Positions 1 through 29,480 of a DNA stretch of 45,207 nt are shown here, in pieces. The stretch comes from Escherichia phage welsh, in the sequence record NC_073078.1; one strand, given 5' to 3'. Both the position numbers and the translations under genes were made by a program. Position 1 is the stretch's first letter. Every line of letters starts with the position of its first letter. The notes under the pieces were generated by a model that saw only the letters and a list, made by a program, of their open reading frames with translations, made no database searches and was not told the DNA's origin.

Positions 1-64
1 CTACCGTAAGGATCTGGTCGAGGCATTGTCTTGATTTGGTCGCTTAAATAGCGAGTGATAATAT

Positions 65-88
65 GGGGCCAGCACGGCCCCTTTTTTA
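65..88 (+). terminator. Rho-independent terminator candidate after the major tail gene
   Basis: GC hairpin GGGGCC-agcac-GGCCCC followed by TTTTTT; lies just before the chaperone RBS GGAGAA. Confidence 0.55.
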
Positions 89-103
89 TTGGAGAATACT
101 ACA

Positions 104-466
104 ATGGCTAAAGCACCACTCTTTACACTTGACCCTAAGCCGACCTTTAAGCTGCCGATTGAGATCCCGCGCCCTGGTGAGAACGAGCCGGGGAAGATGA
201 CTTTCACCGTCCGCCACCGCCCTATCGACGAATTTTCGCAGACCATGCAGGACACTGAGCGCAAATTGTCGGAATATGACGACAATGACCCGGACGGCTT
301 TAACGTTATGGTCGAGGCCATCATGCACGTCGCAGAAGGCTGGAATCTGCCGGACGAATTTAACGCGGAGAACGTCCGCCGCCTGGTGGTCAACTATCCA
401 CGCGCGTTCGGTGTGTTCCACACGTCGTACTATCTCGAACTGATGGGGTTGCGTGAAAAAAACTAA
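104..466 (+). CDS. Tail assembly chaperone (lambda gpG-like)
   Basis: ATG at 104 with GGAGAA RBS 7 nt upstream (track ORF 89..466 begins at an in-frame TTG). Acidic about 120 aa protein upstream of the tape measure gene; ends in a slippery site. Confidence 0.7.
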   Translation: MAKAPLFTLDPKPTFKLPIEIPRPGENEPGKMTFTVRHRPIDEFSQTMQDTERKLSEYDDNDPDGFNVMVEAIMHVAEGWNLPDEFNAENVRRLVVNYPRAFGVFHTSYYLELMGLREKN

Positions 467-780
467 TTGAGGCGGCGCGACGCTTTTATGGCCCGCCGCC
501 ACCCTCCGAAGATTTAGCCGCAAGTTTATGGGGCGCGGCCCCCGAAGATGTTTGTCCACCTGTTGCGCTGTGGCCCGACAACGCGAAGGTAGTCGCAGTC
601 TTCACAGATTGCTCCACGCAATGGCGCACCGGATTTGGTGGCGCATACGGCATCGACTACGGCGTGCTGGAGTGGTTATTTAAGATGCACGGTATCGAAA
701 ACGAACAGCGCGCGTTTAAAGATATCAAGCTAATGGAACGAATAGCGCTTGATGAGATGGCGCAGCAGAACCCCGCATAA
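104..780 (+). CDS. Tail assembly chaperone fusion made by -1 programmed frameshift (lambda gpGT-like)
   Basis: The -1 frame is open from about 457 to TAA at 778-780 and encodes about 105 aa of non-repetitive sequence (KKLIEAARRFYGPPPPSEDL...MAQQNPA). Heptamer A_AAA_AAC sits at the end of the G frame. Confidence 0.6.
455..465 (+). other. Slippery heptanucleotide A AAA AAC (about 457-463) for -1 ribosomal frameshift
   Basis: Run of 7 A then C directly before the G stop codon (464-466); matches the X XXY YYZ pattern; -1 frame stays open downstream. Confidence 0.6.
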
Positions 781-1100
781 TGAAGCGGGACGTCCCGCTT
801 TGTCCCGCCCTGTAAAACCGCATATCTAATCACTTTCATTGCATAAACTCAAAGCGGGACAGGCGGGACGTCCCGTTTTGTCCCACCCATGAAATGTGCA
901 TACCTATTCGAATTTCGTGCATAAAACAAGCGGGACAGAAAGCGGGACAGACAAGGGGCGGGACAAAGCGGGACAGCACCCCGTCCCCACCAGTGCTGCC
1001 GCGGTTTTTAGCCGATCGGGACAGCGGGACAGCACCCCAGTCTTTCAGACTAGACGGGGGTCAATGGCCCCCCTCGTCTGAGACTGAATAAGGTTTGTTT
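781..1100. repeat. Non-coding array of GCGGGAC(A) boxes, copy A, with a hairpin-rich 3' module
   Basis: At least 10 direct or inverted GCGGGAC boxes, including the perfect 18-bp palindrome AAGCGGGACGTCCCGCTT (about 783-800). The last 85 bp or so are near-identical to about 29393-29477. The unit TGCATAAA...AAGCGGGACAG recurs. Confidence 0.8.
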
Positions 1101-1154
1101 TGAAATCGCTGATACAATATCCATCGGCAACTGCATAAAAAAGGGGACTGCATA

Positions 1155-3797
1155 ATGGCAGATCAGGCAGCAGGCATCACGCTAAAGGCTGATGTTGCAC
1201 AAATCAGAACGGCAAATACTGTGCTGGACTCCTTCGCACAGAAATCCGAGAACACAGAAAACAAGGTTAAGAAATTAAACGACACCCTCGGCAAATCCAA
1301 AAAGGTGACGAGTGACGCCGCGGGCGGAATGGAAAAGCTGGCAAACGAATCGCAGCGCGCCGCCGATGGCATGACGAAACAGGAGCGACTCGCCAACAGG
1401 TTAGGGATGTCGACTAAAAACCTGGGCTTTGCCTCGCGTAACGCCGCATTCCAGCTACAGGATATTGCGGTAACGCTTGAGATGGGGATGCCGGTTCACC
1501 GCGTCATGCTTCAGCAGTTACCGCAGCTAACTGGGGCGTTCGGTGGACTGGGTAACACGCTGCGTTATGTTGCGGGCTTCCTCGGCCCAGTAGGGATCGG
1601 CCTCGCCGCCGTAACGGCAACGTTAGGCGTGGGCGTGGCAATTACGTCCCGCGCAGAGAACCAGGTCGCCGCGCTTAACAAGACGCTGGCGCTGTCAGGT
1701 AACATTTCCGGCCTCACTGCAAACCAGATCCTGGTGTTATCCGAGAACGCCGAGCGCATGGGCGGATCATTCCGCAAGACGCGTGACACAATCCAGGCGC
1801 TGGCGGCGGCGGGTGTGAAAGCGGGTGGTGACTTCGGCGCATTGGCTAAGGTAGTTAATGACTTTGCGAAGGTGTCCAGCCAGCCGATCGAGGATGTGGT
1901 AGCGGCGGTGGCGAAGCTGTCAACCGACCCCGTTGGCGGACTGCGTGCGCTGGCGGATAAGTATCACGTCGTAAACGAAGCGCAGATCCAGCAGGTGCAG
2001 TCACTAGTGACGGCTGGTCGCGAAACCGAAGCGGTGGCGCTGGCTAACAAAACAGCCGCAGCGTCGTTTACCACTATGACCAATGAGATCAAGTCCAACA
2101 TGGGTACGCTTGAGCGGTCGATGAACGTCGTTACATCGGCAGCTAAATCTATGTGGGATGCCATCCTGGATGTCGGGCGCGCGCAGTCCTCGAATGAGTC
2201 AGAGATGAAAGCGCGTGAATCATTGCAGCGACTGACCACGGCTTACTATGCCGAGATGAAAGCGGTAAACGCTGCCGGTGGGGTGATGACCGAAGCGCAG
2301 AAAGCGCGTATTAACATGCTTTACAGCGAACTGGTAGCCCAGGAAAAAGTAGTGGCGTCGCTCACCCTGCGCAACCGTGCAGAGCGAGACAACGCAAGTG
2401 CCGCTGACGAAGCAGCAAAGGCGAACGAAGAGGCAAACCGCACCGCCCGCGACCGCGCTGCGTTTGAGAAGGAGTACGCAACCAACGCGAAGAGGCGCGC
2501 CGACGAGATCGCCCGCCTCAATTTGCTTAATAAGCGCGGCGTGATTGACGAGAAAGAGCTTGCCGAGGCGGTGAAGCAGGTAAACGAGCGTTACAAAGAC
2601 CCCGCCCCGAAGAAGGCCGCCGCTGTTCGAGTCGATGCCGGGCTGAAAATGCTGGAGGTCGCACGGAGCGAACTGGCACAGCTTCGAGAATCAGGCAAGC
2701 AGATCGAAGCCAACGCATCGACGCAGACCCGCACGCAACGCGCTCAAGCGGCCCTAAACAAGCTGATCGCGGATAATGAGCAGTTAATCGCCGCAAGCAA
2801 AGAAAGAGCACTAACGGCAGCGGAAAAGCAGCAATTAGTCGAGTTCGGGCGCGTGAAGGAAGTCCGCGAGCAGATCGTCGAAGAAGCTAAATTGCTGGAC
2901 GCGAAAGAGAAGCAGGTCAAGGCGCACGCGCAGATCGACGCCTTCGTTAAGAACCAGAACGCCGAGCTAAAAGCAACCGCGGCGGGATATGCGCTTTCCA
3001 CTCGCGAAGCGGCTAACCTGCGCGAAGAATTGCAGCTAATTGACCGCCTGAAGCGGGTGGGCGCTAACGATACCGATATTGATCTGGCGGTGTCTAAGCT
3101 GCGCGAAGTGCAGGAAGCACAGACCGGTGCTAACGCCTCGCTATGGGATGGCTTCAGCCGCGGGCTTAAGGATAGCGTGGATGAAATGGGTAACGGCTAT
3201 ACGCAGATGACGTCACTCACAAAATTCACGTTCGGCGCTATGCAGGACACGATGAACAAGTTTTTCGAGACTGGCAAGCTGAACGCAAAGGATATGGTTA
3301 AATCCATCCTTAGCGAATTAATCAAGCTGGCTACATCGCAGGCGTTCAAGTCCATCGTTAGCGCTTTCGGTGGCGACGGCGGCAAAAACGGATTGTTCGG
3401 CGCTATCTTCTCGGGCCTCACTAAGAATGCGGACGGCGGAGCGTACGCAGGAGGCAATCTCGCGGCCTATTCGGGTAAAGTGGTAAGCCAGCCTACCTTT
3501 TTCAGTTATGGCGTCCAGGCGTTCGCTAAGGGCGCTGGGTTGATGGGTGAGGCTGGACCCGAGGCCATCATGCCACTGAAGCGCGGGCCGGACGGGAAAC
3601 TGGGCGTTGCCGCGTCTGGCGCAGGCGGTGGTATGGTCGTGACGACTAACGTTTACACGGGGACCGGTAAGACGGACACCAGTGTTAGCGGGCCAGACCC
3701 ACGTACCGCGCAGGCGTTCGGCAAGCAAATCACCGAGGCGGTGAAGTCCGAGATCGTGAAAGCGACTAAACCAGGTGGTGTACTTTACAAACGATGA
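1155..3797 (+). CDS. Tail tape measure protein
   Basis: 880 aa, Ala/Gln-rich coiled-coil character, hydrophobic Gly-rich C-terminal region, positioned after the chaperone gene; RBS AAGGGGA. Confidence 0.85.
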   Translation: MADQAAGITLKADVAQIRTANTVLDSFAQKSENTENKVKKLNDTLGKSKKVTSDAAGGMEKLANESQRAADGMTKQERLANRLGMSTKNLGFASRNAAFQLQDIAVTLEMGMPVHRVMLQQLPQLTGAFGGLGNTLRYVAGFLGPVGIGLAAVTATLGVGVAITSRAENQVAALNKTLALSGNISGLTANQILVLSENAERMGGSFRKTRDTIQALAAAGVKAGGDFGALAKVVNDFAKVSSQPIEDVVAAVAKLSTDPVGGLRALADKYHVVNEAQIQQVQSLVTAGRETEAVALANKTAAASFTTMTNEIKSNMGTLERSMNVVTSAAKSMWDAILDVGRAQSSNESEMKARESLQRLTTAYYAEMKAVNAAGGVMTEAQKARINMLYSELVAQEKVVASLTLRNRAERDNASAADEAAKANEEANRTARDRAAFEKEYATNAKRRADEIARLNLLNKRGVIDEKELAEAVKQVNERYKDPAPKKAAAVRVDAGLKMLEVARSELAQLRESGKQIEANASTQTRTQRAQAALNKLIADNEQLIAASKERALTAAEKQQLVEFGRVKEVREQIVEEAKLLDAKEKQVKAHAQIDAFVKNQNAELKATAAGYALSTREAANLREELQLIDRLKRVGANDTDIDLAVSKLREVQEAQTGANASLWDGFSRGLKDSVDEMGNGYTQMTSLTKFTFGAMQDTMNKFFETGKLNAKDMVKSILSELIKLATSQAFKSIVSAFGGDGGKNGLFGAIFSGLTKNADGGAYAGGNLAAYSGKVVSQPTFFSYGVQAFAKGAGLMGEAGPEAIMPLKRGPDGKLGVAASGAGGGMVVTTNVYTGTGKTDTSVSGPDPRTAQAFGKQITEAVKSEIVKATKPGGVLYKR

Positions 3798-3831
3798 TAA
3801 AATGGCCCTCACTACAACGTGGGGGCTTTTT

Positions 3832-4431
3832 ATGTCACAAGGTACAATCACACTAACGAAAGGAAGTAAGACCGTCACGGGCGCGGGAACGGCGTTCCTT
3901 AGCGAGATCGGGAAGGTACTCGTATTCGCCCGCATCGACGGCAACGACTACACCGGCAAAATTGCGGCATTCAACTCGAACACGGTCATTACGCTGAAAG
4001 ATAACTGGGCTGGGCCAACGAAATCCGGTGCGGCATATGAGCTAATCGAAGCACACGACCCGCGATCAAACGAATGGCCCTATTACTGGCACATGCAATT
4101 GCAGGGCGGTGGCGACGTGCAGTTAGCTTTCCGGTCCGAGGAATTGCAATTCGGTAATGGCTACGGGCAGAACATCGCGGACGGCCCGAACGCCGAAACT
4201 AAACAGTTCCCCGTGCAATTCATAGGGCTGACTACTGACAAGTGGTGCAACCCTAAACTGGTTTACAACTTCCTTCGCGGGCACTTCGTCAAGCCGTTTG
4301 TCGTCACCGCGCCGGATGGCGAAACAGGTTTATTCGTGGTCGAGCGTTCGAGCTTGTCGTACACGGACAACGGACACCTCACGGCAACCGTATCCGCCAC
4401 CCTTAAGACTGCTATTGGATTCGTAAGATGA
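3832..4431 (+). CDS. Minor tail protein (lambda gpM-like position)
   Basis: ATG 3832 with GGGGG 6 nt upstream; track ORF begins at GTG 3775, which overlaps the tape measure stop, so the start is uncertain. First gene after the tape measure. Confidence 0.5.
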   Translation: MSQGTITLTKGSKTVTGAGTAFLSEIGKVLVFARIDGNDYTGKIAAFNSNTVITLKDNWAGPTKSGAAYELIEAHDPRSNEWPYYWHMQLQGGGDVQLAFRSEELQFGNGYGQNIADGPNAETKQFPVQFIGLTTDKWCNPKLVYNFLRGHFVKPFVVTAPDGETGLFVVERSSLSYTDNGHLTATVSATLKTAIGFVR

Positions 4432-5216
4432 ATAAACTTTATCGCGAGGCGACGCGCTTTGACCCATCGGGTCGCGTTCGCCTGATTCACATTGACGCGC
4501 AGGACGTGGAACCAGGCGACGGTGCGATCGGCGCGGGCCATCACTATTTCCACTACTGCTTTATTCCGCACACTGCCGAGGATATTGCTGCCGCCGGTGG
4601 TGACGAGGATAAGCTAAAACCTAAATCCATCTTCTTCGGCGGGCAGGAGTTCGAATTTTGGCCCTTCGATTTGTCCGGCCTTAACTTCTCCACATCGACG
4701 GCGGCAGAACCGCAACTAACAATCGTCGATATTGGCGGCATAATAACCCGGCTGTCGCTGAACCACGACCAGCTACTTGGCGCGAAGGTTGAGATCATTG
4801 ATACGTTCGCGAAGTTCCTGGACAACGGGGCAGATCCAGACCCGACGCAGAAACGAGTTCAGGAGTATTACATCGACTCGCAGGTCGGGCGCAATCCGGG
4901 CAAGCAAATTACCTTCGCACTATCCTCGCCTGCGGATATGGAAGGGCAGGTCGTTCCCCGTCGCCAAATCATGAATATGTGCGAGTGGGCGCTCAACGGG
5001 AAGTACGCCAGCGGGGACGGGTGCACCTGGAACCTTGTGAAGCCTGGTATAAAGTATTATGACGAGCGGGGTAATGAAGTCATTGCGATGAATATGGACC
5101 GATGTGGCGGCTGTTTGTCCGACTGTTATCTTCGATTTGGGCAAGGGCTTGCGGACCCGAAAGCGGCGGTGCTGGACTTCGGCGGCTTTCCTGGGTCCAG
5201 ATTAATTAAGGGGTAG
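4428..5216 (+). CDS. Minor tail protein L-like
   Basis: C-terminal Cys cluster (CTWN...CGGCLSDC) as in lambda gpL; start overlaps the previous stop (ATGA). Confidence 0.75.
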   Translation: MNKLYREATRFDPSGRVRLIHIDAQDVEPGDGAIGAGHHYFHYCFIPHTAEDIAAAGGDEDKLKPKSIFFGGQEFEFWPFDLSGLNFSTSTAAEPQLTIVDIGGIITRLSLNHDQLLGAKVEIIDTFAKFLDNGADPDPTQKRVQEYYIDSQVGRNPGKQITFALSSPADMEGQVVPRRQIMNMCEWALNGKYASGDGCTWNLVKPGIKYYDERGNEVIAMNMDRCGGCLSDCYLRFGQGLADPKAAVLDFGGFPGSRLIKG

Positions 5217-5218
5217 CC

Positions 5219-5959
5219 ATGTTAACGAAAAAGGTTAAAAGCGATATCGCCGCGCACGTTGCGGCGTGTCTGCCAGAAGAAGCCTGCGGCCTGGTGGTCA
5301 TGGTGGGTCGTAAGCAAGTGTTCGTCCCATGTCTGAACGTATTTGAAGACCCGACCGGCGTGCGCTCACGCAAAGACGCGTTTACTATTAGTGATATGGC
5401 CTGGATGGATGCCGAGGATATGGGCGACGTCGTGCGCGTAGTCCACTCGCATCCGGGCCAGCGCGAGCTTACCCCATCACTGGGAGACGTTAACGGATGC
5501 AACGGCAGCGGCGTAGTCTGGACCATCACTAACGAATATGGCGACTTTATCGAGATCGACCCTGAAGACCCGCCGCTGGTAGGCCGCCGATTTGTTCTCG
5601 GAATTACAGATTGTTATGGCCTCGTCATGGACTGGCACAAAAAGCAGAGCGTAAACCTGCCAGACTTCCGCGTGCCGTATAACTGGTGGGAGACAGGCGA
5701 AAATCTGTATATGGATAACTGGTACGGCGCGGGCTTCAGGGAATGCGAGGAGAATACGCCGGGGGCGATGGTTATCATGCAGATTAGCGCGCCAGTGCCT
5801 AACCACGCTGGGATATTCCTTCCGGGCAACCAACTACTACACCATATCTACGGCAGTCTGTCGAGCGTAGTCCCCTTCCGGGCAGGATTTTTCCGCGACA
5901 ATGTGGTTAAATGGGTCCGTCATAAAGACCTACCGGGGAATATCACAGAATGGCAATGA
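5219..5959 (+). CDS. Tail assembly protein K-like (JAMM/MPN plus NlpC/P60-like)
   Basis: HSHPGQRELTPSLGDVNG fits a JAMM metalloprotease motif; C-terminal ITDCYG fits an NlpC/P60-type catalytic Cys; gene order L-K-I-J. Confidence 0.8.
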   Translation: MLTKKVKSDIAAHVAACLPEEACGLVVMVGRKQVFVPCLNVFEDPTGVRSRKDAFTISDMAWMDAEDMGDVVRVVHSHPGQRELTPSLGDVNGCNGSGVVWTITNEYGDFIEIDPEDPPLVGRRFVLGITDCYGLVMDWHKKQSVNLPDFRVPYNWWETGENLYMDNWYGAGFRECEENTPGAMVIMQISAPVPNHAGIFLPGNQLLHHIYGSLSSVVPFRAGFFRDNVVKWVRHKDLPGNITEWQ

Positions 5960-6567
5960 CAACGTTTAAATTGTACGGCGTCTTAGGGCGTCGATTCGGT
6001 AAAGTTCATAAGCTGGACTGCTTCACTCCGGGCGAGGGTATTACCGGCCTGTGCGTGAAGTTACCCGGCTTACAGGACTTTCTAATGTCAGCCCACCTGG
6101 ACAATATGATGTTCAAGGTGCGCAAAGGCGACCACACGATGACCGGCTATGATGAGCTGGGTGAGTTCCACGGCAACCGCGTCGTCACCATCGCGCCGGT
6201 TATGACTGGCGCAAAAAGAGGGTTGGGACAATTGCTGGCGGGTGTCGCGATCGTAGTGGCGTCGTTCTATACGGGCGGACTTGCTACTGCCGCTTTCGGG
6301 GCTTCGGCTGCAACCGCTGCCGCTATCGGGACGGCGACGTTTTCGTTCGGGATGTCGATGGCGCTGGGTGGCGTTATGCAATTGCTGTCGCCACAACCGA
6401 AGGGATTGCAGACAAGGCAGGACGTGGATAACAAGGCGTCGTATGCGTTCGGCGGCCCAGTAAACACTACCGCGCAAGGCACGGCTCTTGGTGTATTATG
6501 GGGCGAGCGTGAGATCGGCGGCGCTATTATTTCAGCCGGAATCGTAACCGAGGACTTGAACGAATGA
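5950..6567 (+). CDS. Tail assembly protein I-like
   Basis: About 200 aa between K and J; Gly/Ala-rich hydrophobic C-terminal half. Confidence 0.65.
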   Translation: MAMTTFKLYGVLGRRFGKVHKLDCFTPGEGITGLCVKLPGLQDFLMSAHLDNMMFKVRKGDHTMTGYDELGEFHGNRVVTIAPVMTGAKRGLGQLLAGVAIVVASFYTGGLATAAFGASAATAAAIGTATFSFGMSMALGGVMQLLSPQPKGLQTRQDVDNKASYAFGGPVNTTAQGTALGVLWGEREIGGAIISAGIVTEDLNE

Positions 6568-9500
6568 CGATTATCTACGACGTCACAGGGCATAAAGGCG
6601 GCGGCGGCAAACAGCACACCCCACAGGAGACGCCAGATAGCCTGCATTCGCTGGCTAAAATCCGCATCTTGCTTGCACTGGGCGAGGGTGAATTCGAAAG
6701 TATTACCAGCGCCAGCGAATTGCGGCAGCGTGTTTACCTGGACGGAACACCGATCCAGAACGCTGACCTGTCCGAAAACTTCCCTGGCGCGCGTGTGGAG
6801 TTCCGCCCCGGCACACAGCACCAGGATGTGATCCACGGATTTTCAGCGGTGGAAAGTGAGCAATCTGTCGGCGTAAAACTGGAAAACGGCACGCCGTGGG
6901 TGCGCCAGATTAACGATACCAGTCTGGACGCTGTTCGCATTCGCATCGGCATTCCAGCCCTGTACACTAACGAAGATAATGGCGACCTGGTGGGCGGGCG
7001 CATCGACTATAAGATAGTTGTGTATACGGATAACGCCGACCCGCGTGAGTTCAGATTCGCCGCCGTTGGTAAAACAATGTCGCTATATGAGCGCGACCAC
7101 CGCATCGAATTACCTCCGAACGTTAACACCGGCTGGCGCGTGGAGGTGCACCGCATAACGGCAGACTCCACATCGGCGAAAGTGGTTAATGATATCCGGG
7201 TGCAGTCCATCACTGAGATTATTGACGCCCGCCTGCGTTACCCGCTAACCGCGCTGTTGTTTGTGGAGTTCGACGCCAAAGCGTTCCAGAACATCCCGCG
7301 CGTGTCCATCAAGTGCAAAGGCCGTAAAGTTCTAATACCGAACAACTACGACCCGATTAATCATACCTATTCCGGGGACTGGGACGGCACGTTTAAACGC
7401 GCATGGACGGATAACCCTGCGTGGCACTGGTACGATATTTGTATTACTGAGCGCTTCGGCCTCGGTCGGCGTATCAAACCGCAAATGTTAAACCGGTACG
7501 CGCTCTACCAGATTGCGCAGCGCTGCGATCAGTTGGTCAGCGACGGCAACGGTGGTCGAGAAATCCGCTTTAAGAATGATATGTACATCCAGTCGCAGAC
7601 AGACGCCTGGACCGTGCTTAAGGATTTGGCGGCCATCTTCGCCGGAATGACCTGGTGGGGTAACCAGATGTTGAATATCGTCAGTGACCAACCGGTCGCG
7701 GCGGTGTCGCACACTATCACCAACGCCTCGGTAATTGATGGGCGATTCGACTACGCATCTGGTAGCCAGAAAACGCGCTATTCCACATTCGCGGTAGCAT
7801 ACGGCAATCCGAAAAACCACTATGAAGATGCTATCGCAACGGGGCAACGTGTCGAACTGGTACGCCGCCATAAGATTAACCGTCTTGATATTACGGCGAT
7901 CGGCTGTACGCGTGAATCTGAAGCGCAACGCCGGGGGCACTGGGCGCTAATCTCAAACCAGCTTGACCAGCAAGTTAGTTTTAAGGTGGGCATGGAGGGG
8001 TTATTCTTTATCCCCGGTAGCGTAGTTGCGATCGCAGATACTAATATTTCTGGCGGATTCGAGACTCGTGGCGGTCGCCTGTTGTCGGACCCTGGAACGC
8101 GTACCGTGCTGAACACGGACAGCGAAATCACATTCCGCCCTGGCGATAAGTTCCTGGTACGCACCGATAGCGGTAATGTGGAGACTCGCGAGATCGCCAG
8201 CGTCAACGGCAACAAGGTTACGCTAAAAACCGCACTTGATGCCGACCCGATTCCAGACCAGCCGTTTTGCGTTGATGGCGACGATATCCAGTTGCAAAAA
8301 TTCCGCATCACCGACCTGGAATATGACGACTCTACGAGCACTTTCTCGGTGCGCGGGATTGAATACAACGATAGCAAGTATGATGCCGTTGATAATGGCG
8401 CTCGCCTTGACCCTGGCATCTTTACGCAAGTGCCTGACGGTGTAATGAAGGGGCCGGAATCCGTGACCATCACCCCGTCGCAGATTTCATCGCAAGGCCA
8501 GCTAATCACCAACGTGGATATTGTATTCCCTCCGGTGAAGGATGCCGTGGTGTATGAAATCCAGTGGCGACGTACCAGCTTGCAGAATATGGAAATCCAG
8601 TGGGGTAACGACTGGGTGAATATCCCACGCACGGCGTCGAACGGCGCGCACATCCCCAACGTGTTCTCCGGTAACTATCAGGCACGCGTCCGCGCGATCG
8701 GTATGGGCGAGATTTCATCTCCGTGGGTGTCGTCCGCCATCACGCCGGTGGAAGGTCGTCTCGGTGGGCTTAACGCACCAATCATCACCAACGCTATTTC
8801 GGGCCTTCACCAGATCTTGTGGAAGTGGAACCACAACAACGCCGCTACTGATATCTCGTACACCGAGCTTGAAGTGCGCAAGACCGGTGAGACTGAATGG
8901 AAATTCCTTACCAACGTCCCATATCCGGGGGCGGAGTATGCGCAAACATCGCTGGAGTTCGGAATTTACCAGCAGTTGCGCGCCCGTGTAGCGGATAAAA
9001 TCGGCAACCTGTCGGACTGGTCGGCCCCGTTTGAAGGGCAGGTGAGTGACAAAGTTGACGAGTACATGAAGGGGCTTGATGACGAGTTCTTGACTTCCGA
9101 GGATGGTAAACGCTTCCAGGAAGCAATCAACACGATCCCGCAGGGTATTTACGAGGCGATGCTCACCGACGCGCAGCAATTGTTCAATGCCCGCGCCGAG
9201 TATAAAGGGATTTATGCGGAAATCACGGTGGCGTATAACGTGGCGGCGGACGCGCATAAAGCCGTAGCGCAACTGGAAACGTTGATCGGCACGCGCCTTG
9301 ATGACGCTGAAGCATCAATCCACACGTTGCAGACTGCGCAAAGCACACATGAACAAGCGTTCGCCCAGTACCAGCAAACTGTTGCCGCTAAGTTTTCGGA
9401 ACAGGAAGCAGCCATCCAGCAGGTACAAACGGCAACGGCGGACGTGGCGGGCGCGCTGGCAGAGTATAAGACCCAGGTCGCGGCGCAGTTCGGACAGCAG

Positions 9501-9983
9501 TCCGCAGCTATCGAGCAGAAGATGACGTCTTCGTTTAACCATGCTGGTGGCAGCGCCACGTACAGTCTTAAGGCTGGCGTGACGTATAACGGGACTTACT
9601 ATGACGCCGGTATGCAGCTTTCAGTTGTGACGTCTGGCAACGCGGTTAAATCCCGCATCGCATTCAAGGCGGACCAGTTCTACATCATGCATCCGTCCAA
9701 TGGGACGCTGTCGTCTGCGTTTATTGTGGACGGTGGCGAGGTGTATATCGACACGGCACGCATCAAGAACGCGTCCATCAACTTCGCGCAGATAACAGAC
9801 ACGCTGCAATCGAATAACTACGACGGCAGCACGCGCGGCTGGCGCTTAGGGAAAGATGGAACGTTTATCAACCTGGGCACCGGTAGCGGCGGCGGGATGA
9901 AACAGACGAACACAAGAATAAGCGTGAAGGACGGAAACGGCGTTCTCCGCGTGCAGATTGGTGAGCTTACTGGTAGCTGGTAG
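6564..9983 (+). CDS. Central tail fibre / host specificity protein J-like
   Basis: 1139 aa, directly after I with overlapping start, as for lambda gpJ. Confidence 0.85.
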   Translation: MTIIYDVTGHKGGGGKQHTPQETPDSLHSLAKIRILLALGEGEFESITSASELRQRVYLDGTPIQNADLSENFPGARVEFRPGTQHQDVIHGFSAVESEQSVGVKLENGTPWVRQINDTSLDAVRIRIGIPALYTNEDNGDLVGGRIDYKIVVYTDNADPREFRFAAVGKTMSLYERDHRIELPPNVNTGWRVEVHRITADSTSAKVVNDIRVQSITEIIDARLRYPLTALLFVEFDAKAFQNIPRVSIKCKGRKVLIPNNYDPINHTYSGDWDGTFKRAWTDNPAWHWYDICITERFGLGRRIKPQMLNRYALYQIAQRCDQLVSDGNGGREIRFKNDMYIQSQTDAWTVLKDLAAIFAGMTWWGNQMLNIVSDQPVAAVSHTITNASVIDGRFDYASGSQKTRYSTFAVAYGNPKNHYEDAIATGQRVELVRRHKINRLDITAIGCTRESEAQRRGHWALISNQLDQQVSFKVGMEGLFFIPGSVVAIADTNISGGFETRGGRLLSDPGTRTVLNTDSEITFRPGDKFLVRTDSGNVETREIASVNGNKVTLKTALDADPIPDQPFCVDGDDIQLQKFRITDLEYDDSTSTFSVRGIEYNDSKYDAVDNGARLDPGIFTQVPDGVMKGPESVTITPSQISSQGQLITNVDIVFPPVKDAVVYEIQWRRTSLQNMEIQWGNDWVNIPRTASNGAHIPNVFSGNYQARVRAIGMGEISSPWVSSAITPVEGRLGGLNAPIITNAISGLHQILWKWNHNNAATDISYTELEVRKTGETEWKFLTNVPYPGAEYAQTSLEFGIYQQLRARVADKIGNLSDWSAPFEGQVSDKVDEYMKGLDDEFLTSEDGKRFQEAINTIPQGIYEAMLTDAQQLFNARAEYKGIYAEITVAYNVAADAHKAVAQLETLIGTRLDDAEASIHTLQTAQSTHEQAFAQYQQTVAAKFSEQEAAIQQVQTATADVAGALAEYKTQVAAQFGQQSAAIEQKMTSSFNHAGGSATYSLKAGVTYNGTYYDAGMQLSVVTSGNAVKSRIAFKADQFYIMHPSNGTLSSAFIVDGGEVYIDTARIKNASINFAQITDTLQSNNYDGSTRGWRLGKDGTFINLGTGSGGGMKQTNTRISVKDGNGVLRVQIGELTGSW

Positions 9984-9987
9984 TATA

Positions 9988-10007
9988 GGGGCTTCGGCCC
10001 CTTTTTA
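9988..10007 (+). terminator. Rho-independent terminator candidate after the J-like gene
   Basis: GGGGC-ttcg-GCCCC followed by TTTTT. Confidence 0.6.
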
Positions 10008-10019
10008 ACGAGGTTATTT

Positions 10020-10322
10020 ATGGCATTCGGTATCGCAACGTGGGACGCGCAAGGACGCCCAAACAACTACGGCATTAAACCGGTAAGCGTGATCGGAAGG
10101 ATTCATCTTGCGGAAGGACAAAAATCAGGCGCATGGTCATTCCCTGTACCGGCGGGGATGAAGGTCGGATACGTGGTCGCACTGGATGAAGGCGCGGTCG
10201 GGCCAGGCCGCAGAATAACCGCCAGCGGGAACACTATCACGGTTTCCGCGGCAAGTGCGGTAGGTGGCGGGGTTTACTCCGCATCTGAATGTGACGTTAT
10301 TGTTTTTGTGGAGCGAGCATAA
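10020..10322 (+). CDS. Hypothetical protein (tail-associated by position)
   Basis: 100 aa ORF with RBS GAGG upstream; no recognisable motif. Confidence 0.4.
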   Translation: MAFGIATWDAQGRPNNYGIKPVSVIGRIHLAEGQKSGAWSFPVPAGMKVGYVVALDEGAVGPGRRITASGNTITVSAASAVGGGVYSASECDVIVFVERA

Positions 10323-10996
10323 TGGCTAATTACGGCGCGTTGATTGACTTACCAAACGGCAACCCGTTTATCACGCCAGAATCGACGCCGTTTTGTCTAT
10401 TCCGCCGTGTGGTTGTTGGGTCTTCGGCAAACGGCACTGCGCAGTCGGCGGCTGCCGATATTAATTTGGGTGGTGACTACCCGGCAATAGCGTTTGTGAA
10501 AACTACGCACACCGCCCAGCCGACCGTCGTAGGGTCTTCTCGCGTTGGTAATGTGGTGAAGGTGAGAGCCAGCAATCCATTCGGGCGAGGCTTCACGATG
10601 ACGGCTTACATCTTTGCCATATTCCCACAGACCCTTCCGCGGTGGGGCTTCGCTATTTGGGATAAGACGGGGAAGCTAGTACTTACTAATGAGAGTCGCG
10701 TACTAAGCGATTTAGTTACCGTCGGATCTCCTGGCGCTAACGGGGGGATTAACATTGACCAGACGCTAAATGGCAGCTACGCCGTCGCTCCGGGCATATT
10801 GGGGTCTACGCTGATCCGGTTTTTTGTGCAGGGCCAGCCGCAAGTAATATCGGTAACGGCGTACACGGGGGCCAGATTTGATGGGTCGCGAACGCGTATA
10901 TCAGCAGCGTCGTCGGGGAACGCCACGGGGGATGTGGTGGGGTATACTAACAACGGCAACGCGATTATGGCGATTAACACGGCCAATTATGATTGA
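10322..10996 (+). CDS. Hypothetical protein (tail-associated by position)
   Basis: 224 aa ORF, start overlaps the previous stop; Gly/Thr-rich, likely beta-rich. Confidence 0.4.
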   Translation: MANYGALIDLPNGNPFITPESTPFCLFRRVVVGSSANGTAQSAAADINLGGDYPAIAFVKTTHTAQPTVVGSSRVGNVVKVRASNPFGRGFTMTAYIFAIFPQTLPRWGFAIWDKTGKLVLTNESRVLSDLVTVGSPGANGGINIDQTLNGSYAVAPGILGSTLIRFFVQGQPQVISVTAYTGARFDGSRTRISAASSGNATGDVVGYTNNGNAIMAINTANYD

Positions 10997-11015
10997 AGAA
11001 AGCCCCGAAAGGGGC

Positions 11016-11234
11016 TTATTTGCAGGTGGTGCTTTTGAAGTGGTCGACCGACACATACTGGAAGTTGAACGGATACCCCGCCTTGAGCATTTTGTGCCCG
11101 CTAAAGTCGGCGACACCGAACACTGGTACAGAATACTCCATACCGCTATTCATATATGTCGCGTCGCAGATTTTAGACGGCATACCGGCACAACCGGACA
11201 GAAGAACCGCACAAATCATAATTAAAGTTTTCAT
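11016..11234 (-). CDS. Small lipoprotein, candidate receptor-blocking superinfection exclusion protein
   Basis: Internal ATG at 11234 with AGGAGA RBS; MKTLIMICAVLLSGC is a signal peptide with lipobox LSGC; 72 aa; opposite strand, between tail genes. Confidence 0.55.
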   Translation of the reverse strand: MKTLIMICAVLLSGCAGMPSKICDATYMNSGMEYSVPVFGVADFSGHKMLKAGYPFNFQYVSVDHFKSTTCK

Positions 11235-11313
11235 GTTATCATCTCCTATATTTGGTTGAGTTTTAGTATTACACCTCTCAACCAGGATTGCAACCAATTA
11301 CGAGGATTTAGCT

Positions 11314-13740
11314 ATGGCAGCGGGCACACTATCCGTAACGAATAACAGCAAGGCGGTTGTCGGGGTAGGCACGACGTTTACCGCGTTTAAAGCCGGAGAC
11401 TTCTTAACGCTGGTGGTGGGCCAAGTACCCTACACCGTAGCGATCGCGTCCGTTGAAAGTGCAACCGCGCTAACGCTGGTGCTGCCGTTCGACGGCCCAA
11501 CGGCAACCGGCCTCGCGTGGGATGGCGTTAAGCGCGATACCATGTCGCTGGCAACGATGGGCGTTACCGTACAGGCACAGAAAGCGTTGCGCTTGATGAT
11601 CGCAGATGAAAACAACTGGCGCGCTATCTTCGGCGAAGAAGAAGAAATCTCGGTCACGCTACCGAACGGTCAAGTGGTGCAGGGTATGTCGTGGGGCTAC
11701 CTGTCAAAACTGCTTAAAGACGTAGATCCTGTTGAATTGCAGGCTATCGCGGACCAGACCATCACGGCTAAAAACCAGGCGCAAGGATTCCGTAACGAGG
11801 CGGAAGGATTCAAGAACACCGCGAATACCGCGAAAGAGGCCGCAGTAGCTGCGAAGACCGCGGCTGAAACGGCGCAGGGTAAAGCCGAGACAGCTACTGC
11901 GGCAGCGGAGTCCGCGAAGACTGCCGCCGAAACAGCTAAATCGCAGGCCGTAACCGCTAAAGACCAGGCAAAAGGATTCCGTGACGAGGCAGAAGGCTTT
12001 GCGAACAGCGCGGACGCCTCGCAGAAAGTGCCGTATGCGGGCGTAACCGTAAACCCTCCTACTGGCGTGAGGGATATGCTAAAGCGGTTGCGCGATTCGG
12101 TCAAAGGCGGATTCTGGCGCGTTGATGATATTTCGCAGTTCCAAGCGGGGGATATGACCCCTTTCAGATACGGACCTGGCGTATGTGGCGGCGCAGGGGA
12201 CACATTCTTTGCAATCAACGTTGACTGGCGAACCTCGCGCGTTAAAGTTTTCTCGGGAAACAACAACGCGATCAACGGGTCGTCGGGCAGTGTGAGCGCC
12301 ATTGAGCTTGCGAAGCTGGGGGCGAACGGGGGCGTGGCGATCGCGGACGGCGGGACCGGTGCATCGGACGACCAGGGCGCGAGAAAAAACCTTCAGGCAA
12401 TGCACGAGCGACAGGCATCGTTGAATACTGAAGATCTTAACGTCCTTCAGGGTGATAAGGCTGGGTTTTATTATCAGTCCATGTCGGCTGACGCCACCCC
12501 AGAGCGTAACTATCCTATTAACATGGCGGGTTGTTTACTGGTGCAAAGATCCGGTGCTAACGATCCGAAGAGTTGCGTACAGACGTACACCGCATACGGC
12601 AACGGGCGGCGTTGGATTCGATGGCTAGGCAACGCGACGACTGGCCCATGGTCGCAGTGGTACGAATTATATAACGCAGGGTCGTCGCCGACTTTTTCAG
12701 GGGTGGTCGCTGGTTCTTCGGTGGAGGCTAGAGGGAACGAAAAGCGCGCAGTTCTTCGCACCTGGCCTAATGATGTATCTGTTTCCAACTCGGCATCTAA
12801 TAAATTCTTGCAATTAAGGGACAATGGTGAGCTTGCATACGACAACAAGCTGATTGCCTATGACGGCCTTGCGGCCAGTGGCACTTTTGCTATGACCGTC
12901 CCTAGCATTAAAGTTACAACAGCCAATGGCGGATTTCGTATCGACGGCACCACCGCCACAAACAACCAGCCACTTCACGTAACAGGCTACAACTCCGCAG
13001 GCACGCGTCTTTGGTTTTTAGGGAAGGACACCGGGACGAACGCGCTATTCCTGAACGATGTTACATCGTCTAAGGTTGAGCTGATCACAGACGGCGTTGT
13101 GCTTGGTACAAAGGATTTTGCGGGCAAGGCATACGTCCAGGCCGCAAGTTTAGAGATCGACCGACCGAGCGGCAAGTATTTCAAAATGCTGAACGACGGC
13201 AACTCGTCGCACCCGGCAACCTTCAAATTATGGGGTAACGGGTCTGATAGGGCGTCGGTTATTGAGTGTGGTTTTGATAACGGCCCTGGGTGGGTGTTTT
13301 ACGCCCAGTATAACGGCGACGGCACGCGCCAGATGAACGTTAACGGAACGGTAAACTGTACGACGGTAAACCAGTCGTCTGACCGCGAGTTGAAGGATAA
13401 CATCAAGCCGATCGAGAACGCTCGCGCTGGCCTTGCTAAGATGGGTGGCTATACCTACACCCTGAAGAAAGACGGTATGCCGTACGCTGGGGTGATTGCA
13501 CAGGAAGTAATGGACGTTGTGCCGGAAGCGGTGAGCACTTTTGAGGACTACGAATACCTGGCAGGGCCAACGAAAGACGGCGAGGAACTGGTAGGGCGTC
13601 AGCGCTTCTTCCAGGTGGATTATGGTGCTATTGCTGCATACGCGGTGCAAGTGTGTAAAGAACAGGAAGAGGAACTGGTGTCATTGCGTAGCGAACTGGA
13701 GGAATTGAAAGCTGCCGTAGCGGCATTGACTAAAGCATAA
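11314..13740 (+). CDS. Tail fibre protein with C-terminal intramolecular chaperone (peptidase S74-like) domain
   Basis: C-terminal about 130 aa (SDRELKDNIKPIENARAGLAKMGGYTYTLKKDGMPYAGVIAQEV...) resembles the self-cleaving chaperone domain of phage fibres and endosialidases. N-terminal Ala/Lys-rich region has an internal duplication (GFRNEAEGF / GFRDEAEGF). Confidence 0.8.
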   Translation: MAAGTLSVTNNSKAVVGVGTTFTAFKAGDFLTLVVGQVPYTVAIASVESATALTLVLPFDGPTATGLAWDGVKRDTMSLATMGVTVQAQKALRLMIADENNWRAIFGEEEEISVTLPNGQVVQGMSWGYLSKLLKDVDPVELQAIADQTITAKNQAQGFRNEAEGFKNTANTAKEAAVAAKTAAETAQGKAETATAAAESAKTAAETAKSQAVTAKDQAKGFRDEAEGFANSADASQKVPYAGVTVNPPTGVRDMLKRLRDSVKGGFWRVDDISQFQAGDMTPFRYGPGVCGGAGDTFFAINVDWRTSRVKVFSGNNNAINGSSGSVSAIELAKLGANGGVAIADGGTGASDDQGARKNLQAMHERQASLNTEDLNVLQGDKAGFYYQSMSADATPERNYPINMAGCLLVQRSGANDPKSCVQTYTAYGNGRRWIRWLGNATTGPWSQWYELYNAGSSPTFSGVVAGSSVEARGNEKRAVLRTWPNDVSVSNSASNKFLQLRDNGELAYDNKLIAYDGLAASGTFAMTVPSIKVTTANGGFRIDGTTATNNQPLHVTGYNSAGTRLWFLGKDTGTNALFLNDVTSSKVELITDGVVLGTKDFAGKAYVQAASLEIDRPSGKYFKMLNDGNSSHPATFKLWGNGSDRASVIECGFDNGPGWVFYAQYNGDGTRQMNVNGTVNCTTVNQSSDRELKDNIKPIENARAGLAKMGGYTYTLKKDGMPYAGVIAQEVMDVVPEAVSTFEDYEYLAGPTKDGEELVGRQRFFQVDYGAIAAYAVQVCKEQEEELVSLRSELEELKAAVAALTKA

Positions 13741-13746: not shown

Positions 13747-13769
13747 GGGGCCATCCGGCCCCTTTTTTA
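13747..13769. terminator. Bidirectional terminator between the tail fibre gene and the end of the leftward operon
   Basis: GGGGCC-atcc-GGCCCC followed by TTTTTT on the + strand; genes converge here. Confidence 0.6.
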
Positions 13770-14342
13770 GTTTGAGTTTTCCCAGTCCATTTTGCGCCGC
13801 ACCAGCGGGCTTTCGTAATATTCCTTGCCTTCCACTTCCACCAGAGGCCAGTCGTTCACAATCACGTATGGCTCTGCGATATCCTCGATCACGCCGTGCG
13901 CGCTTTGCGGCCCTAACGATACACCCACCAGGATAACACCGGCAACGCGACGTGACAGATACTCGCGAGCGCAACGCGCCTCTACCAGCCCGCGACGGAT
14001 GCCGCTGGTGGCTTTAACCTCGTAAGTCCAAACGGCATCGATCACATGCTCGCGGAAGTCGGGGCCGGATTTAACCTTGCGCTTACCGACCATAATAATA
14101 TCGCCGCGGTCAATGGTATTGGCGCTAAACAGGCCGGTACGCATGAGCAAGCCTTGCGGTATGCAACTACGCCCGCCCGCCTGCCCCTCAAGGTACATAC
14201 CGGCAAACATCTCGCCCAAAACACCGACAAGACGGCTTTGCTTGCACGCGTCAGACTTTAAGCGCCACTGGTCAAACTCGATGCTTGCTATCATCGCCGC
14301 AAGGTGGAATTGTTTACCGGATATTTCATATTCGCCGTACAT
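13767..14342 (-). CDS. Hypothetical protein, possible PD-(D/E)XK-type nuclease
   Basis: 191 aa; RBS GAGGA before ATG; segment HVIDAVWTYEVKAT fits a D...ExK nuclease signature. The product call is weak. Confidence 0.35.
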   Translation of the reverse strand: MYGEYEISGKQFHLAAMIASIEFDQWRLKSDACKQSRLVGVLGEMFAGMYLEGQAGGRSCIPQGLLMRTGLFSANTIDRGDIIMVGKRKVKSGPDFREHVIDAVWTYEVKATSGIRRGLVEARCAREYLSRRVAGVILVGVSLGPQSAHGVIEDIAEPYVIVNDWPLVEVEGKEYYESPLVRRKMDWENSN

Positions 14343-14384
14343 CGTGTGGTCCTCATTGATGCGGGCCGAAGCCCGCGATTAGAA

Positions 14385-14939
14385 TTATTTCAGTGCGCTA
14401 CGTACCAGTGTTTTTTCCATGTTGCGGAAGTCTTCCGGCGTCATGAGGGTTTTGGATCCGTCTTCGCCAGTTAGAACTACCATAGGCTGGACGTCCTGGG
14501 CTACAACTCCGAAATTGGCAGCTTTAACGGTCTTCCCTAACGAGGCCGCCATATCCTCGGTAACGCGCATTGCACTGTTATACGCATTAATCTCGCCATC
14601 AAGACGCACGGACAGACCTTTGAGGCTTTCAAACTGTTCTGCCGTTGTATCGATCTGAATCTCGTCATGCACGGTCATGTAAGACTCGCCCAGCAGGGCG
14701 GCATACGCTACCAGGTCCACGATGTTATCTTCCTGGTGTTTACGGTGCTGGCGTACCAGCTTTAGGCAGATCAAGAAGGTCCAGGCTTCTTGCTCGGTCA
14801 GGTCGCGACCGGTAAGCGCGTTAAACACGGCGGCAATTTGTTTCGCGCTGCGTTCCTCTTTCGCGTTGTCATAGCCGTTTTCTTTTCCGCGCTGTTCCAT
14901 AGTGGTGGCGGCGTTTTTGCAGTATTCGTATGCTTTCAT
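14385..14939 (-). CDS. Hypothetical protein
   Basis: 184 aa. N-terminal pattern EQRGKENGY...LTxxDxxxFLICLKLVRxxxK...DNIVDLVAYAALLGE resembles a domain I recall from phage nucleotide-metabolism proteins, but I cannot name the family with confidence. A GGGAGGC-n6-GCCTCCC hairpin sits in the 5' leader. Confidence 0.45.
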   Translation of the reverse strand: MKAYEYCKNAATTMEQRGKENGYDNAKEERSAKQIAAVFNALTGRDLTEQEAWTFLICLKLVRQHRKHQEDNIVDLVAYAALLGESYMTVHDEIQIDTTAEQFESLKGLSVRLDGEINAYNSAMRVTEDMAASLGKTVKAANFGVVAQDVQPMVVLTGEDGSKTLMTPEDFRNMEKTLVRSALK

Positions 14940-15002
14940 GATGTGGTCCTGTTTATGGGAGGCCGTATTGCCTCCCGACGCGTTAACTATAGTGCAACCA
15001 AC

Positions 15003-15473: not shown

Positions 15474-15703
15474 TTTAAGCTCTCAATAAGGGTGTATCGG
15501 GCGCTGCGCGCGGTGAAGGAGTTGCACACGAAATGGCAACGCTGAGTCATGACAAGCCAACCGGTGAGGTCAAGGCCCAGGATGTATTCGGGGCGAGACG
15601 CGCGCACCACACGATTGCGTCGCGGGTCGATGTTATAGTCTCTTTGCATTTGGTATACGACCGCGGGGTCGCGGTCAACGATTAAGATATTCATGTAACT
15701 CAC
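15470..15703 (-). CDS. Hypothetical protein
   Basis: 77 aa ORF whose ends overlap neighbouring genes within the operon. Confidence 0.35.
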   Translation of the reverse strand: MSYMNILIVDRDPAVVYQMQRDYNIDPRRNRVVRASRPEYILGLDLTGWLVMTQRCHFVCNSFTARSARYTLIESLK

Positions 15704-16160: not shown

Positions 16161-16169
16161 GATCTGGGT

Positions 16170-16847: not shown

Positions 16848-16928
16848 CGTGTTGTCTCCAGGTATTAAAAAGGGCGTCCAAACCGGACACCCTAAATATA
16901 ATGCAACCAATATGATTATGCAACCAAT

Positions 16929-19603: not shown

Positions 19604-19611
19604 CGTCATGT

Positions 19612-19639: not shown

Positions 19640-19646
19640 GTATTAA

Positions 19647-19820: not shown

Positions 19821-19860
19821 CTCTAGAATCCTCGATATGGCTAACCGGCACACTATACCG

Positions 19861-26549: not shown

Positions 26550-26879
26550 ATGAATGTAAACGACGCAATCGAAATGTTAACGAAGACTGTTTGCAGTGAG
26601 ACAAGCCGGTCATGGGCATACACCGATGCCGTGGGGGCTGTGTTATTTGAAATCGAACGACTGCGGCTTACCGAAAAAGAATTGCGCGCCAGGCTGGAAC
26701 TACTCAACGGTACAGCAGCAAGCAAGCTGCAAAAACACAATGAAGAAATGGAAGAATACAAAAAGCAGGTTATCCGTTTGCGCGCCGAGGGCAAATCTTG
26801 GGCGATGATTGCCGAGTTGACCGGAATTAATCAGAGCACAGTGCGCTCCTGGGTACGCAATAATAAAACTTCTAAGTAA
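26550..26879 (+). CDS. HTH DNA-binding protein (possible early regulator)
   Basis: C-terminal GKSWAMIAELTGINQSTVRSWV is helix-turn-helix-like; first gene of the rightward transcript. Confidence 0.45.
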   Translation: MNVNDAIEMLTKTVCSETSRSWAYTDAVGAVLFEIERLRLTEKELRARLELLNGTAASKLQKHNEEMEEYKKQVIRLRAEGKSWAMIAELTGINQSTVRSWVRNNKTSK

Positions 26880-29269: not shown

Positions 29270-29480
29270 GTGTAAATATAATGAATAGTTATGCAGTTTT
29301 ATTGCATAAAGTAAGCGGGACAAAAAGCGGGACAAACAAGGGGCGGGACAAAGCGGGACAGCACCCCCGTCCCGCCCCGGATGGCGCGGCTTCCAGAGGA
29401 GCGGGACAGCGGGACAGCACCCCAGTCTTTCAGACTAGACGGGGGTCAACGGCCCCCCTCGTCTGAGACTGAATAAAATC
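29270..29480. repeat. GCGGGACA box array, copy B, with the conserved 3' hairpin module
   Basis: Seven or more GCGGGAC boxes. About 29393-29477 is near-identical to copy A (about 1016-1090); the 39-bp stretch between box clusters differs in sequence but is the same length as in copy A. Confidence 0.8.

Follow-up and report, generated by a model that had tools for sequence, protein, structure and literature searches.

Two short non-coding loci in the genome of Escherichia phage welsh (NC_073078.1) were found to carry arrays of one and the same box, GCGGGACA. The analysed stretch of 45 207 nt, hereafter the window, represents essentially the whole genome of this Dhillonvirus (HK578-like lytic siphophage of E. 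coli). Locus 1 lies between the frameshifted open reading frame (ORF) of the tail assembly chaperone and the tape measure gene, and locus 2 starts about 130 nt past the stop codon of the primase-helicase gene. We interpret the boxes as iterons, i.e. specific binding sites of the phage's own primase-helicase, and the copy at 29282-29476 as a replication origin, with a probability of about 0.65. An origin is favoured because locus 2 adjoins the primase-helicase gene, because the layout of the locus is kept in related phages with lineage-specific boxes, and because the predicted C-terminal winged helix of the enzyme diverges in parallel with them. A two-site origin bound by the primase-helicase, as in satellite phage P4, had been suggested in a preliminary description of this DNA; the two-site origin was the best-supported reading on comparison, and the enzyme itself is not a member of the P4 alpha family.

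The heptamer GCGGGAC occurred 23 times in the window against an expectation of 9.75, a number reached by none of 100 shuffled sequences. Of these copies, 17 fell within about 1% of the sequence (10 in 781-1100 and seven in 29315-29415), and as the remaining six were scattered singletons, the box is not equally frequent in coding DNA. The shifted form CGGGACA was present in 17 copies (5.9 expected), 14 of them inside the two loci. With at most one mismatch, locus 1 contained 12 boxes in both orientations and locus 2 seven boxes, in agreement with the minimum of ten direct and inverted boxes at locus 1 that had been counted in the preliminary description. The two palindromes named there, AAGCGGGACGTCCCGCTT (18 bp, 783-800) and GGGACGTCCC (865-874), both proved perfect, and the reported gap of about 375 bp was placed at 781-1154 (374 bp), between the end of the DUF1799 ORF, whose stop codon marks the start of the gap, and the first codon of the tape measure gene.

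The two loci share a repeat of 195 nt (897-1091 and 29282-29476), which aligned without gaps at 85% identity. Over roughly the final 85 nt the two copies hardly differ, as had been noted for a copy 28 kb away; the repeat as a whole is longer and less uniform than was described. Both copies open with an AT-rich element; four direct boxes come next, then a spacer of about 40 nt, two further boxes and finally a nested GC-rich hairpin (coordinates are collected in the table). At both loci there are thus at least three short direct repeats at roughly helical spacing and confined to the locus, as is characteristic of iterons, and an AT-rich neighbour, as expected of an iteron origin, which is conserved across lineages; the A+T content adjoining the boxes was 65-72%, compared to 45% genome-wide. 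The TGCATA-N17-TGCATAAAA element of locus 1 is the counterpart of TGAATAGTTATGCAG...TGCATAAAG at locus 2 and in other lineages, and is a candidate unwinding element or host-factor site. Locus 1 has in addition two upstream units, A and B, in which boxes face each other about the GGGACGTCCC core. Unit B is a tandem copy of unit A and its spacer (785-847 and 863-925, 75% identity), and compared with most homologues unit A of the window is missing 11 nt by deletion, there being one additional direct box in unit A of most other Dhillonviruses.

Features of the two box loci of Escherichia phage welsh and of the genes flanking them (positions in the window).
Feature	Position	Strand	Details and basis
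Tail assembly chaperone (G-like), upstream flank of locus 1	104..466	+	Pfam Phage_TAC_4, E 1.7e-23
-1 frameshift extension of chaperone (T-like, DUF1799)	466..780	+	Pfam DUF1799, E 2.6e-21
Unit A, palindromic box cluster	783..808	.	Boxes 785+, 791-, 801-; includes palindrome 783-800
AT-rich spacer, ends in TTGCATAAA	813..853	+	71% A+T vs 45% genome; conserved in alignment
Unit B	854..886	.	Boxes 854+, 863+, 879-; GGGACGTCCC palindrome 865-874
AT-rich element opening the shared module, TGCATA-N17-TGCATAAAA	897..929	+	Repeat comparison, alignment
Core array of putative iterons, four direct GCGGGACA boxes	930..975	+	Start-to-start spacing 12, 16, 10 bp
Variable spacer between box groups	976..1015	+	Differs between locus 1 and locus 2; ±1 indels, length-compensated
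Two more direct boxes (TCGGGACA, GCGGGACA)	1016..1031	+	8-9 bp apart
Nested GC-rich hairpin, CAGTCT..CAGAC..GACGGGGG-loop-CCCCCCTCGTCTG.AGACTG	1038..1086	+	DNA fold -13.4 kcal/mol, z -4.1
Two TGCATAA motifs around GGGGA ribosome-binding site and tape measure ATG	1131..1157	+	Sequence, alignment
Tape measure gene, downstream flank of locus 1	1155..3797	+	ORF and homologue annotation
Small HTH_23/Sigma70_r4-like protein, upstream of primase-helicase	26550..26879	+	Pfam
Primase-helicase, 754 aa	26890..29154	+	Pfam AAA_25; PHROG replicative helicase-primase; AF2 models
Locus 2 AT-rich element, TGAATAGTTATGCAG-TTTTAT-TGCATAAAG	29282..29314	+	72% A+T over 29262-29314
Locus 2 box array	29315..29416	+	Direct 29315, 29327, 29343, 29353, 29401, 29409; inverted 29368
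Locus 2 copy of the conserved hairpin	29423..29471	+	z -3.5, alignment

Conservation of the module, a point on which a search had been called for, was evident from matches of locus 1 and of its second copy to 157 phage records at 80-97% identity, almost all of them Dhillonvirus, and two copies were present in every complete Dhillonvirus genome searched. In alignments of 13 distinct homologues per locus the CGGGACA cores were essentially invariant, the four boxes of the core array being near-invariant with a first base of G or A, and the spacers between boxes varied. The module segment was exactly 198 nt long in all 13 homologues although internal ±1 indels occur, these being always compensated. 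The constant length suggests a constraint on length, spacing or phasing rather than on a reading frame. Two of the matching records, MG065648.1 (Campylobacter phage A144) and OQ221563.1 (Acinetobacter phage NJ01), contain the Dhillonvirus module at 92-94% identity, and their host labels look doubtful.

The ORFs that run over the repeats (894-1091 and 896-1081, of 65 and 61 aa, and 29212-29466) have been annotated as hypothetical proteins of 61-84 aa in many GenBank records of Dhillonvirus, e.g. NC_073071.1 (gp36/gp37) and MZ501088.1 (bas17_0053), and small protein-coding genes would account for the occurrence of such ORFs at both loci. Each of these coding frames is, however, broken by stop codons or lost starts in four to six of the 13 homologues and shifted by the internal ±1 indels, so the 65- and 61-aa ORFs are not conserved as protein, and the recurring SGT/AGQ peptides are merely the translation of the boxes. 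Genuine small genes are therefore hardly conceivable here, and the hypothetical protein genes over the modules are, judged by these frames, probably false gene calls.

The hairpin that ends each module, one per module, exceeded shuffled sequence in stability, whichever strand was folded (z about -4), and every related lineage had a counterpart of it 3′ of the boxes (z -2.1 to -4.7); the preceding spacer (976-1015) had no significant fold (z 0.18). Within Dhillonvirus the stems are essentially invariant and the loop is variable, and between lineages the inner stem changes in a compensatory manner, from GGGGG:CCCCC to GGGTG:CACCC and GGGAG:CTCCC. When the modules of relatives L256 and L253 were compared by BLAST with phage records, the hairpin was the only part that matched Dhillonviruses, and the L253-type module was found in a single place per record. 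Conserved stems with a variable loop, some compensatory pairs, and a presence in two copies like putL/putR might also be expected of a structured non-coding RNA, e.g. a GGA-repeat protein sponge or an element modifying RNA polymerase like HK022 put, and at locus 2 the homology between the copies starts right after a TATAAT hexamer (29275-29280). A functional RNA is nevertheless very unlikely: there was no Rfam match at the gathering threshold anywhere in the window, the covariation term of RNAalifold was about 0 despite double changes in seven of 14 pairs, the hairpin folds equally on both strands, the boxes occur in both orientations at a helical spacing that is DNA-like, their sequence shifts by lineage along with a DNA-binding domain, and elsewhere the arrays are found also within protein-coding initiator genes.

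The protein encoded next to locus 2 has a primase-like N-terminus with conserved acidic residues and a Cys/His cluster, which gave a weak PHROG match to DNA primase (E 4e-6); residues 1-350 had no Pfam match even at E 5, and neither Toprim nor Zn_Ribbon_Prim was detected in them. The helicase domain is structurally closest to RepA of RSF1010 (Foldseek 1nlf/1g8y, E 2e-11, TM 0.67-0.71 as normalised to the target), with RecA-fold proteins also among the best matches; a PDB sequence search with the whole protein returned only a marginal match to RepA. The C-terminal hundred residues or so (winged helix at about 660-740) were predicted by AlphaFold2 (AF2) as three helices followed by a beta wing, and were matched by Foldseek with winged helices of MarR, histone H1 and ORC2 at probabilities of 0.85-0.99, the P4 alpha domain being absent among the top 50 of these weak matches. 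A homologue search with the C-terminal 140 aa alone returned one fragment only. No other part of the protein is conserved as poorly as the C-terminus, which has identities of 53-63% to close relatives (76-84% in the helicase domain) and of 24-31% to distant ones (60-69% in the helicase domain).

Relatives of the primase-helicase were gathered at decreasing identity (24-80% in the C-terminal domain) and the DNA after each gene was read. In each, 340-900 nt of non-coding DNA followed the gene directly, laid out as AT-rich TGAATAGTTATGCAG-type elements, short direct and inverted boxes, and then a GC hairpin. The boxes themselves differed: CGGGACA in Dhillonvirus and L250, GTGTGCCAA in L255, GTGTGGCAA in L256 and L257, GGTGCCA in L258 and L259, GGGGAGA in Cornellvirus FSL SP-031, GGGATAA in L253, CGGACAA in L254, ACTCGCAA in L252, and CGCCCCG in Edwardsiella phage eiAU-183, several of these being only a few substitutions apart. 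The array is thus linked to the primase-helicase gene, with boxes that change with the initiator, as is typical of iterons, the co-variation being coarse. In the Guernseyvirinae relatives SETP3, ST20 and Bas72 there was no gap after the primase-helicase gene.

Close to locus 2, a 54-bp tandem duplication (29143-29246) covers the last codons and the stop of the primase-helicase gene and carries a ATTGGTTGCC box and a GATATGGGAATTCCCATATC palindrome; it is found in some Dhillonviruses and absent from others.

The second locus has a distribution of its own. In Cornellvirus the boxes occurred only after the primase-helicase gene, with seven of nine GGGGAGA copies there, and a search for a second locus in the L256 lineage by pairs of GTGTGGCA returned at least 120 unrelated matches, with no relatives among the matches listed. 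Eiauvirus eiAU-183 keeps both loci, with boxes of its own and with the hairpin. As in Dhillonvirus, the chaperone frameshift ORF is separated from the tape measure gene by a large gap, a core of 40 nt (90% identity) is common to this gap and to the gap after the primase-helicase gene, and a GACGGGGG...CCCCTCGTC hairpin immediately precedes the tape measure gene. Since it is shared with Eiauvirus, the two-locus arrangement is older than the current box sequence and has been maintained. In eiAU-183 (L127) a minus-strand ORF at 42367-42720 lies inside the chaperone/tape measure gap, making the gap about 1.1 kb long.

Sites for DNA packaging (pac, terminase binding) or recombination would be another use for such arrays, as small terminases typically bind at arrays of short repeats and some assemblies start or end within the module (Maverick, CHD5UKE2). 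However, record ends at a 195-nt repeat are to be expected from short-read assemblers, and in all lineages the arrays are syntenic with the primase-helicase and not with terminase, in two copies per genome, making a packaging or recombination function highly improbable.

The small HTH_23 (helix-turn-helix) protein encoded upstream of the primase-helicase was considered as the box-binding protein and rejected: its HTH is identical (GKSWAMIAE.TGIN.STVRSWVRN) in lineages with different boxes, so that it is not the protein specific for the boxes. A second motif, ATTGGTTGC(A), was present in 22 copies in the window, mostly intergenic and often paired: near locus 2 at 29167, 29221, 29256, 29537(-), 29628 and 29659, and elsewhere at 11290, 14994/15006, 16903/16920, 19877, 23321/23337, 26353, 30213, 32774/32797 and 40394/40407. 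It overlaps sigma-70-like promoters of the form TTGCAT-N17-TATATT (e.g. 29632-29660), and it is unchanged in relatives with differing origin boxes, the form in eiAU being GCAACCAA (31 copies). Because the HTH_23 protein and ATTGGTTGC are equally constant across relatives, they form a candidate pair of regulator and operator, or of regulator and early promoter.

Arrays of the box were also sought in unrelated phages, by scanning IMG/VR for three GCGGGACA boxes at short spacing, which gave at least 120 loci; among the matches listed, 97 had no nucleotide similarity to the window, and the counts that follow likewise refer to matches listed. At 34 loci the 3′ end of a primase/helicase gene, of Prim-Pol+AAA_25, Zn-ribbon/Toprim P4-alpha-like or in some cases DnaB-like type, lay at most 450 nt from the array, and at 30 loci the array lay within a lambda-O-like gene of 250-330 aa, right after the N-terminal winged helix. 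Combined, an initiator-gene context was found at 60 of the 97 unrelated loci, the remainder including at least nine coding repeats, and others that are non-coding and accompanied by AT-rich flanks, by GATC clusters or by a GC hairpin of similar kind. A control scan with three copies of a permuted 8-mer, GGACGCAG, also gave at least 120 matches, so the raw number of GCGGGACA arrays was discarded as a special sign and only the context differs. In the control, none of the 119 arrays listed had an O-like gene or a primase-helicase as its context, and 110 of the 119 were coding repeats with a 12-nt period. Because the control gave none, the association with initiator genes is specific to this kind of array. 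The presence of arrays in O-like genes and at the 3′ ends of primase-helicase genes points to the signature of an origin, not of late control.

The O-like family (L011, L013, L027, L029, L037, L066, L078 and others) has a conserved N-terminal winged helix without a Pfam match, and its genes carry the GCGGGACA array at nt 250-420, where it encodes SGT/AGQ/RDSSGT linkers. Two unrelated contigs (L117:78-200 and L120:6738-6800) have TGTCCCGCGAC arrays beside GATC clusters (GGATCACT repeats), a neighbourhood reminiscent of Dam-regulated origins. A DNA-binding domain common to the Dhillonvirus C-terminus, the Prim-Pol/AAA_25 C-termini and the O-like N-termini was rejected, the hhalign probability being below 1% with input sets one of which included some unrelated proteins.

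Transcriptional control was considered as the function of the arrays. The boxes would then bind a regulator, possibly the primase-helicase itself as roadblock or activator, and the hairpin would serve as terminator, attenuator or antitermination signal, with the early-to-late boundary set at locus 2 and the expression of tape measure and tail genes tuned at locus 1. The positions are suitable, as locus 2 is located between the early rightward operon and the lysis and structural genes and locus 1 within the late operon, both modules being oriented with transcription. Moreover, the conserved TG(C/A)ATA-N17-CATAAA resembles a weak promoter, a terminator is annotated in the gap of PTXU06, and the TGCATAA motif is found again at the ribosome-binding site of the tape measure gene. 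The last of these had been described beforehand as a degenerate repeat, and the motif is indeed repeated there and enriched in the window (12 copies against 5.5 expected, six of them within the two loci). Scans of both loci for sigma-70 promoters and intrinsic terminators were, however, negative at the modules, and the hairpin is without a T-run. Furthermore, regulation leaves unexplained the boxes that unrelated phages have within lambda-O-like coding sequence and at primase-helicase 3′ ends, as well as the restriction of the Cornellvirus array to the end of the primase-helicase gene, and the invariant small HTH protein does not follow the changes of the box. We regard a purely transcriptional role as unlikely, and a regulatory role of the same protein-DNA complexes could coexist with origin function.

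If the arrays are an iteron origin, the steps that we infer are binding, unwinding and priming. The C-terminal winged helix would bind the phased boxes, the RepA-like helicase domain would assemble there and open the neighbouring AT-rich DNA, and the exposed hairpin would signal the primase domain to start or to load, in the way of the ssi hairpins of RSF1010 or the stem-loop of pRN1, after which the phage DNA polymerase would take over.

Several observations weigh against an origin. The searched literature contained no experimental data on replication initiation, binding or transcription in Dhillonvirus, and GC skew tracked gene orientation only, neither locus standing out. Locus 2 is at the early/late boundary and locus 1 inside the late operon, both oriented with transcription, a placement that regulation fits equally. 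The matches of the C-terminal domain in Foldseek were weak (E 0.03-0.4), and the same 8-mer accompanies initiators whose DNA-binding domains have no detectable similarity. Co-variation with the boxes was compared for the primase-helicase and the small HTH protein among the DNA-binding proteins of these genomes; that of boxes and winged helix is coarse and not assignable to particular residues, and P0010 and the window share helix 2, yet differ in their boxes.

Among known systems, the closest analogue by layout is the oriL/oriR pair of SPP1, which is closer than ori/crr of P4. In SPP1, oriL is located within the initiator gene and oriR breaks the otherwise conserved succession of late structural genes, both combine direct repeats with an AT-rich element, and both bind gp38; the bound oriR has been proposed to stall forks as a barrier and so to trigger the switch from theta to sigma (concatemer) replication (PMC6316719, PMC3485210). 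The window likewise belongs to a lytic siphophage of about 44 kb with two similarly organised loci, one at the initiator gene and one breaking the late gene order, a two-locus layout that is also kept in Eiauvirus. The differences are that oriL lies inside gene 38, whereas the array here is 3′ of the gene; that SPP1 uses gp38 as organiser, a separate loader and a DnaB-type helicase, whereas primase, helicase and a predicted winged helix form one polypeptide here; that there is no sequence similarity; and that the late copy is located between portal and scaffold in SPP1 and between chaperone and tape measure here. SPP1 is backed by binding and in vitro replication data.

The IncQ plasmid RSF1010 and the Sulfolobus plasmid pRN1 resemble the putative origin in other respects. 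At oriV of RSF1010 there are iterons, an AT-rich stretch, the RepA helicase, and ssi hairpins that are recognised by the primase as a start signal (PMC4234260). Iterons, AT-rich stretch and stem-loop are all present in the Dhillonvirus module, and the helicase is of RepA type by its structural match; unlike here, three proteins (RepC, RepA, RepB′) are employed instead of a single fusion, the two ssi hairpins (ssiA/ssiB) are on opposite strands instead of one hairpin per module, and the iterons are of 20 bp instead of 7-8 bp. In pRN1 and in phage origins of BIP-1 type, a required stem-loop is located directly 3′ of the gene for a primase/helicase/winged-helix fusion (PMC4234260). The position of the origin element with its stem-loop directly 3′ of a fusion gene is the same, whereas pRN1 has no iterons and an SF3 helicase, and its stem-loop is of about 100 nt compared to about 50 nt here. 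The layout of lambda, with ori inside gene O, was found in 30 unrelated contigs among the matches listed, not in the window; the O-like family is without a Pfam match, and no similarity of its domain to the Dhillonvirus C-terminus was detectable.

P4 has two separate cis loci, ori and crr, with the same boxes in both orientations. Two cis loci with common boxes are also seen here, and in unrelated contigs alpha-like proteins with Zn ribbon and Toprim have GCGGGACA arrays right after their genes. Unlike alpha, the Dhillonvirus protein is without a Toprim or Zn ribbon match and its helicase is of RepA/RecA type (AAA_25), not SF3; the boxes are GCGGGACA instead of TGTTCACC, the loci are 17 or 28 kb apart instead of about 4.5 kb, and the conserved hairpin has no equivalent in P4. 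In PMC4234260, with reference to Ziegelin and Lanka 1995 and to Yeo et al. 2002, P4 alpha is described as a multifunctional primase-helicase whose C-terminal winged helix binds short repeats of the origin.

The copy at locus 1, with the shared module and two palindromic four-box units, is proposed to be a second binding locus of the same protein. By analogy, replication might also initiate there, or the copy might serve as a cis enhancer like crr of P4 or as a bound fork barrier like oriR of SPP1. A tentative and rather unlikely variant is that the tail-operon copy, kept in at least two genera, is a non-initiating landing pad highly occupied by the primase-helicase. If so, forks stalled or looped there would bring about the switch from circle-to-circle to concatemer replication, as has been proposed for SPP1 oriR; the occupied pad could in addition control whether the tape measure and distal tail genes are transcribed, thereby coupling tail production to replication; and the fast turnover of paired boxes and winged helices in close relatives would constitute a barrier of replication specificity between co-infecting phages.

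In the window as a whole, the tail genes are on the plus strand (1-13740) and early and replication genes on the minus strand (13767-26328), followed by a plus-strand block that opens with the small HTH gene and the primase-helicase gene, continues with small genes and with those for lysis, terminase and head, and so rejoins the tail genes. An A7 slippery run, read off the sequence, is found in the chaperone gene at 455-461, and a strong terminator-like hairpin (GGGGCC...GGCCCC followed by T6) at 65-81, between the major tail protein and chaperone genes. A minus-strand ORF of 229 aa (25639-26328) contains 81-nt tandem repeats that encode Asp/Glu-rich and Lys/Ala-rich stretches, and its sole Pfam match was a weak one of low complexity.

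Neither iteron origins beside initiator genes nor dual origins are new as kinds of element. New are the link to the C-terminus of the primase-helicase, the series of boxes by lineage, the conserved hairpin, and the two-locus arrangement held in common with Eiauvirus. The GenBank record of Sodalis phage SO-1 already marks a 'region A' and a 'region B' as related repeat regions to which a possible function is ascribed; the searched literature contained nothing on origins or repeats of Dhillonvirus, the box sequence appearing there only in primers.

Dhillonviruses are common phages of E. coli, which are represented in the BASEL collection, used in studies of defence systems, and candidates for therapy. 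An origin at these loci would explain why, oddly, non-coding DNA interrupts a tail operon that is otherwise tightly packed, and many GenBank records would have their 'hypothetical protein' calls over the repeat corrected. The origin module together with its cognate binding domain may provide a replicon for phage engineering and for amplification assays with origin plasmids, and the related initiators with different box specificities would constitute a natural series for studying the co-evolution of DNA recognition. If the tail-operon copy acts like oriR of SPP1, the switch in replication mode would extend from a Bacillus phage to enterobacterial siphophages.

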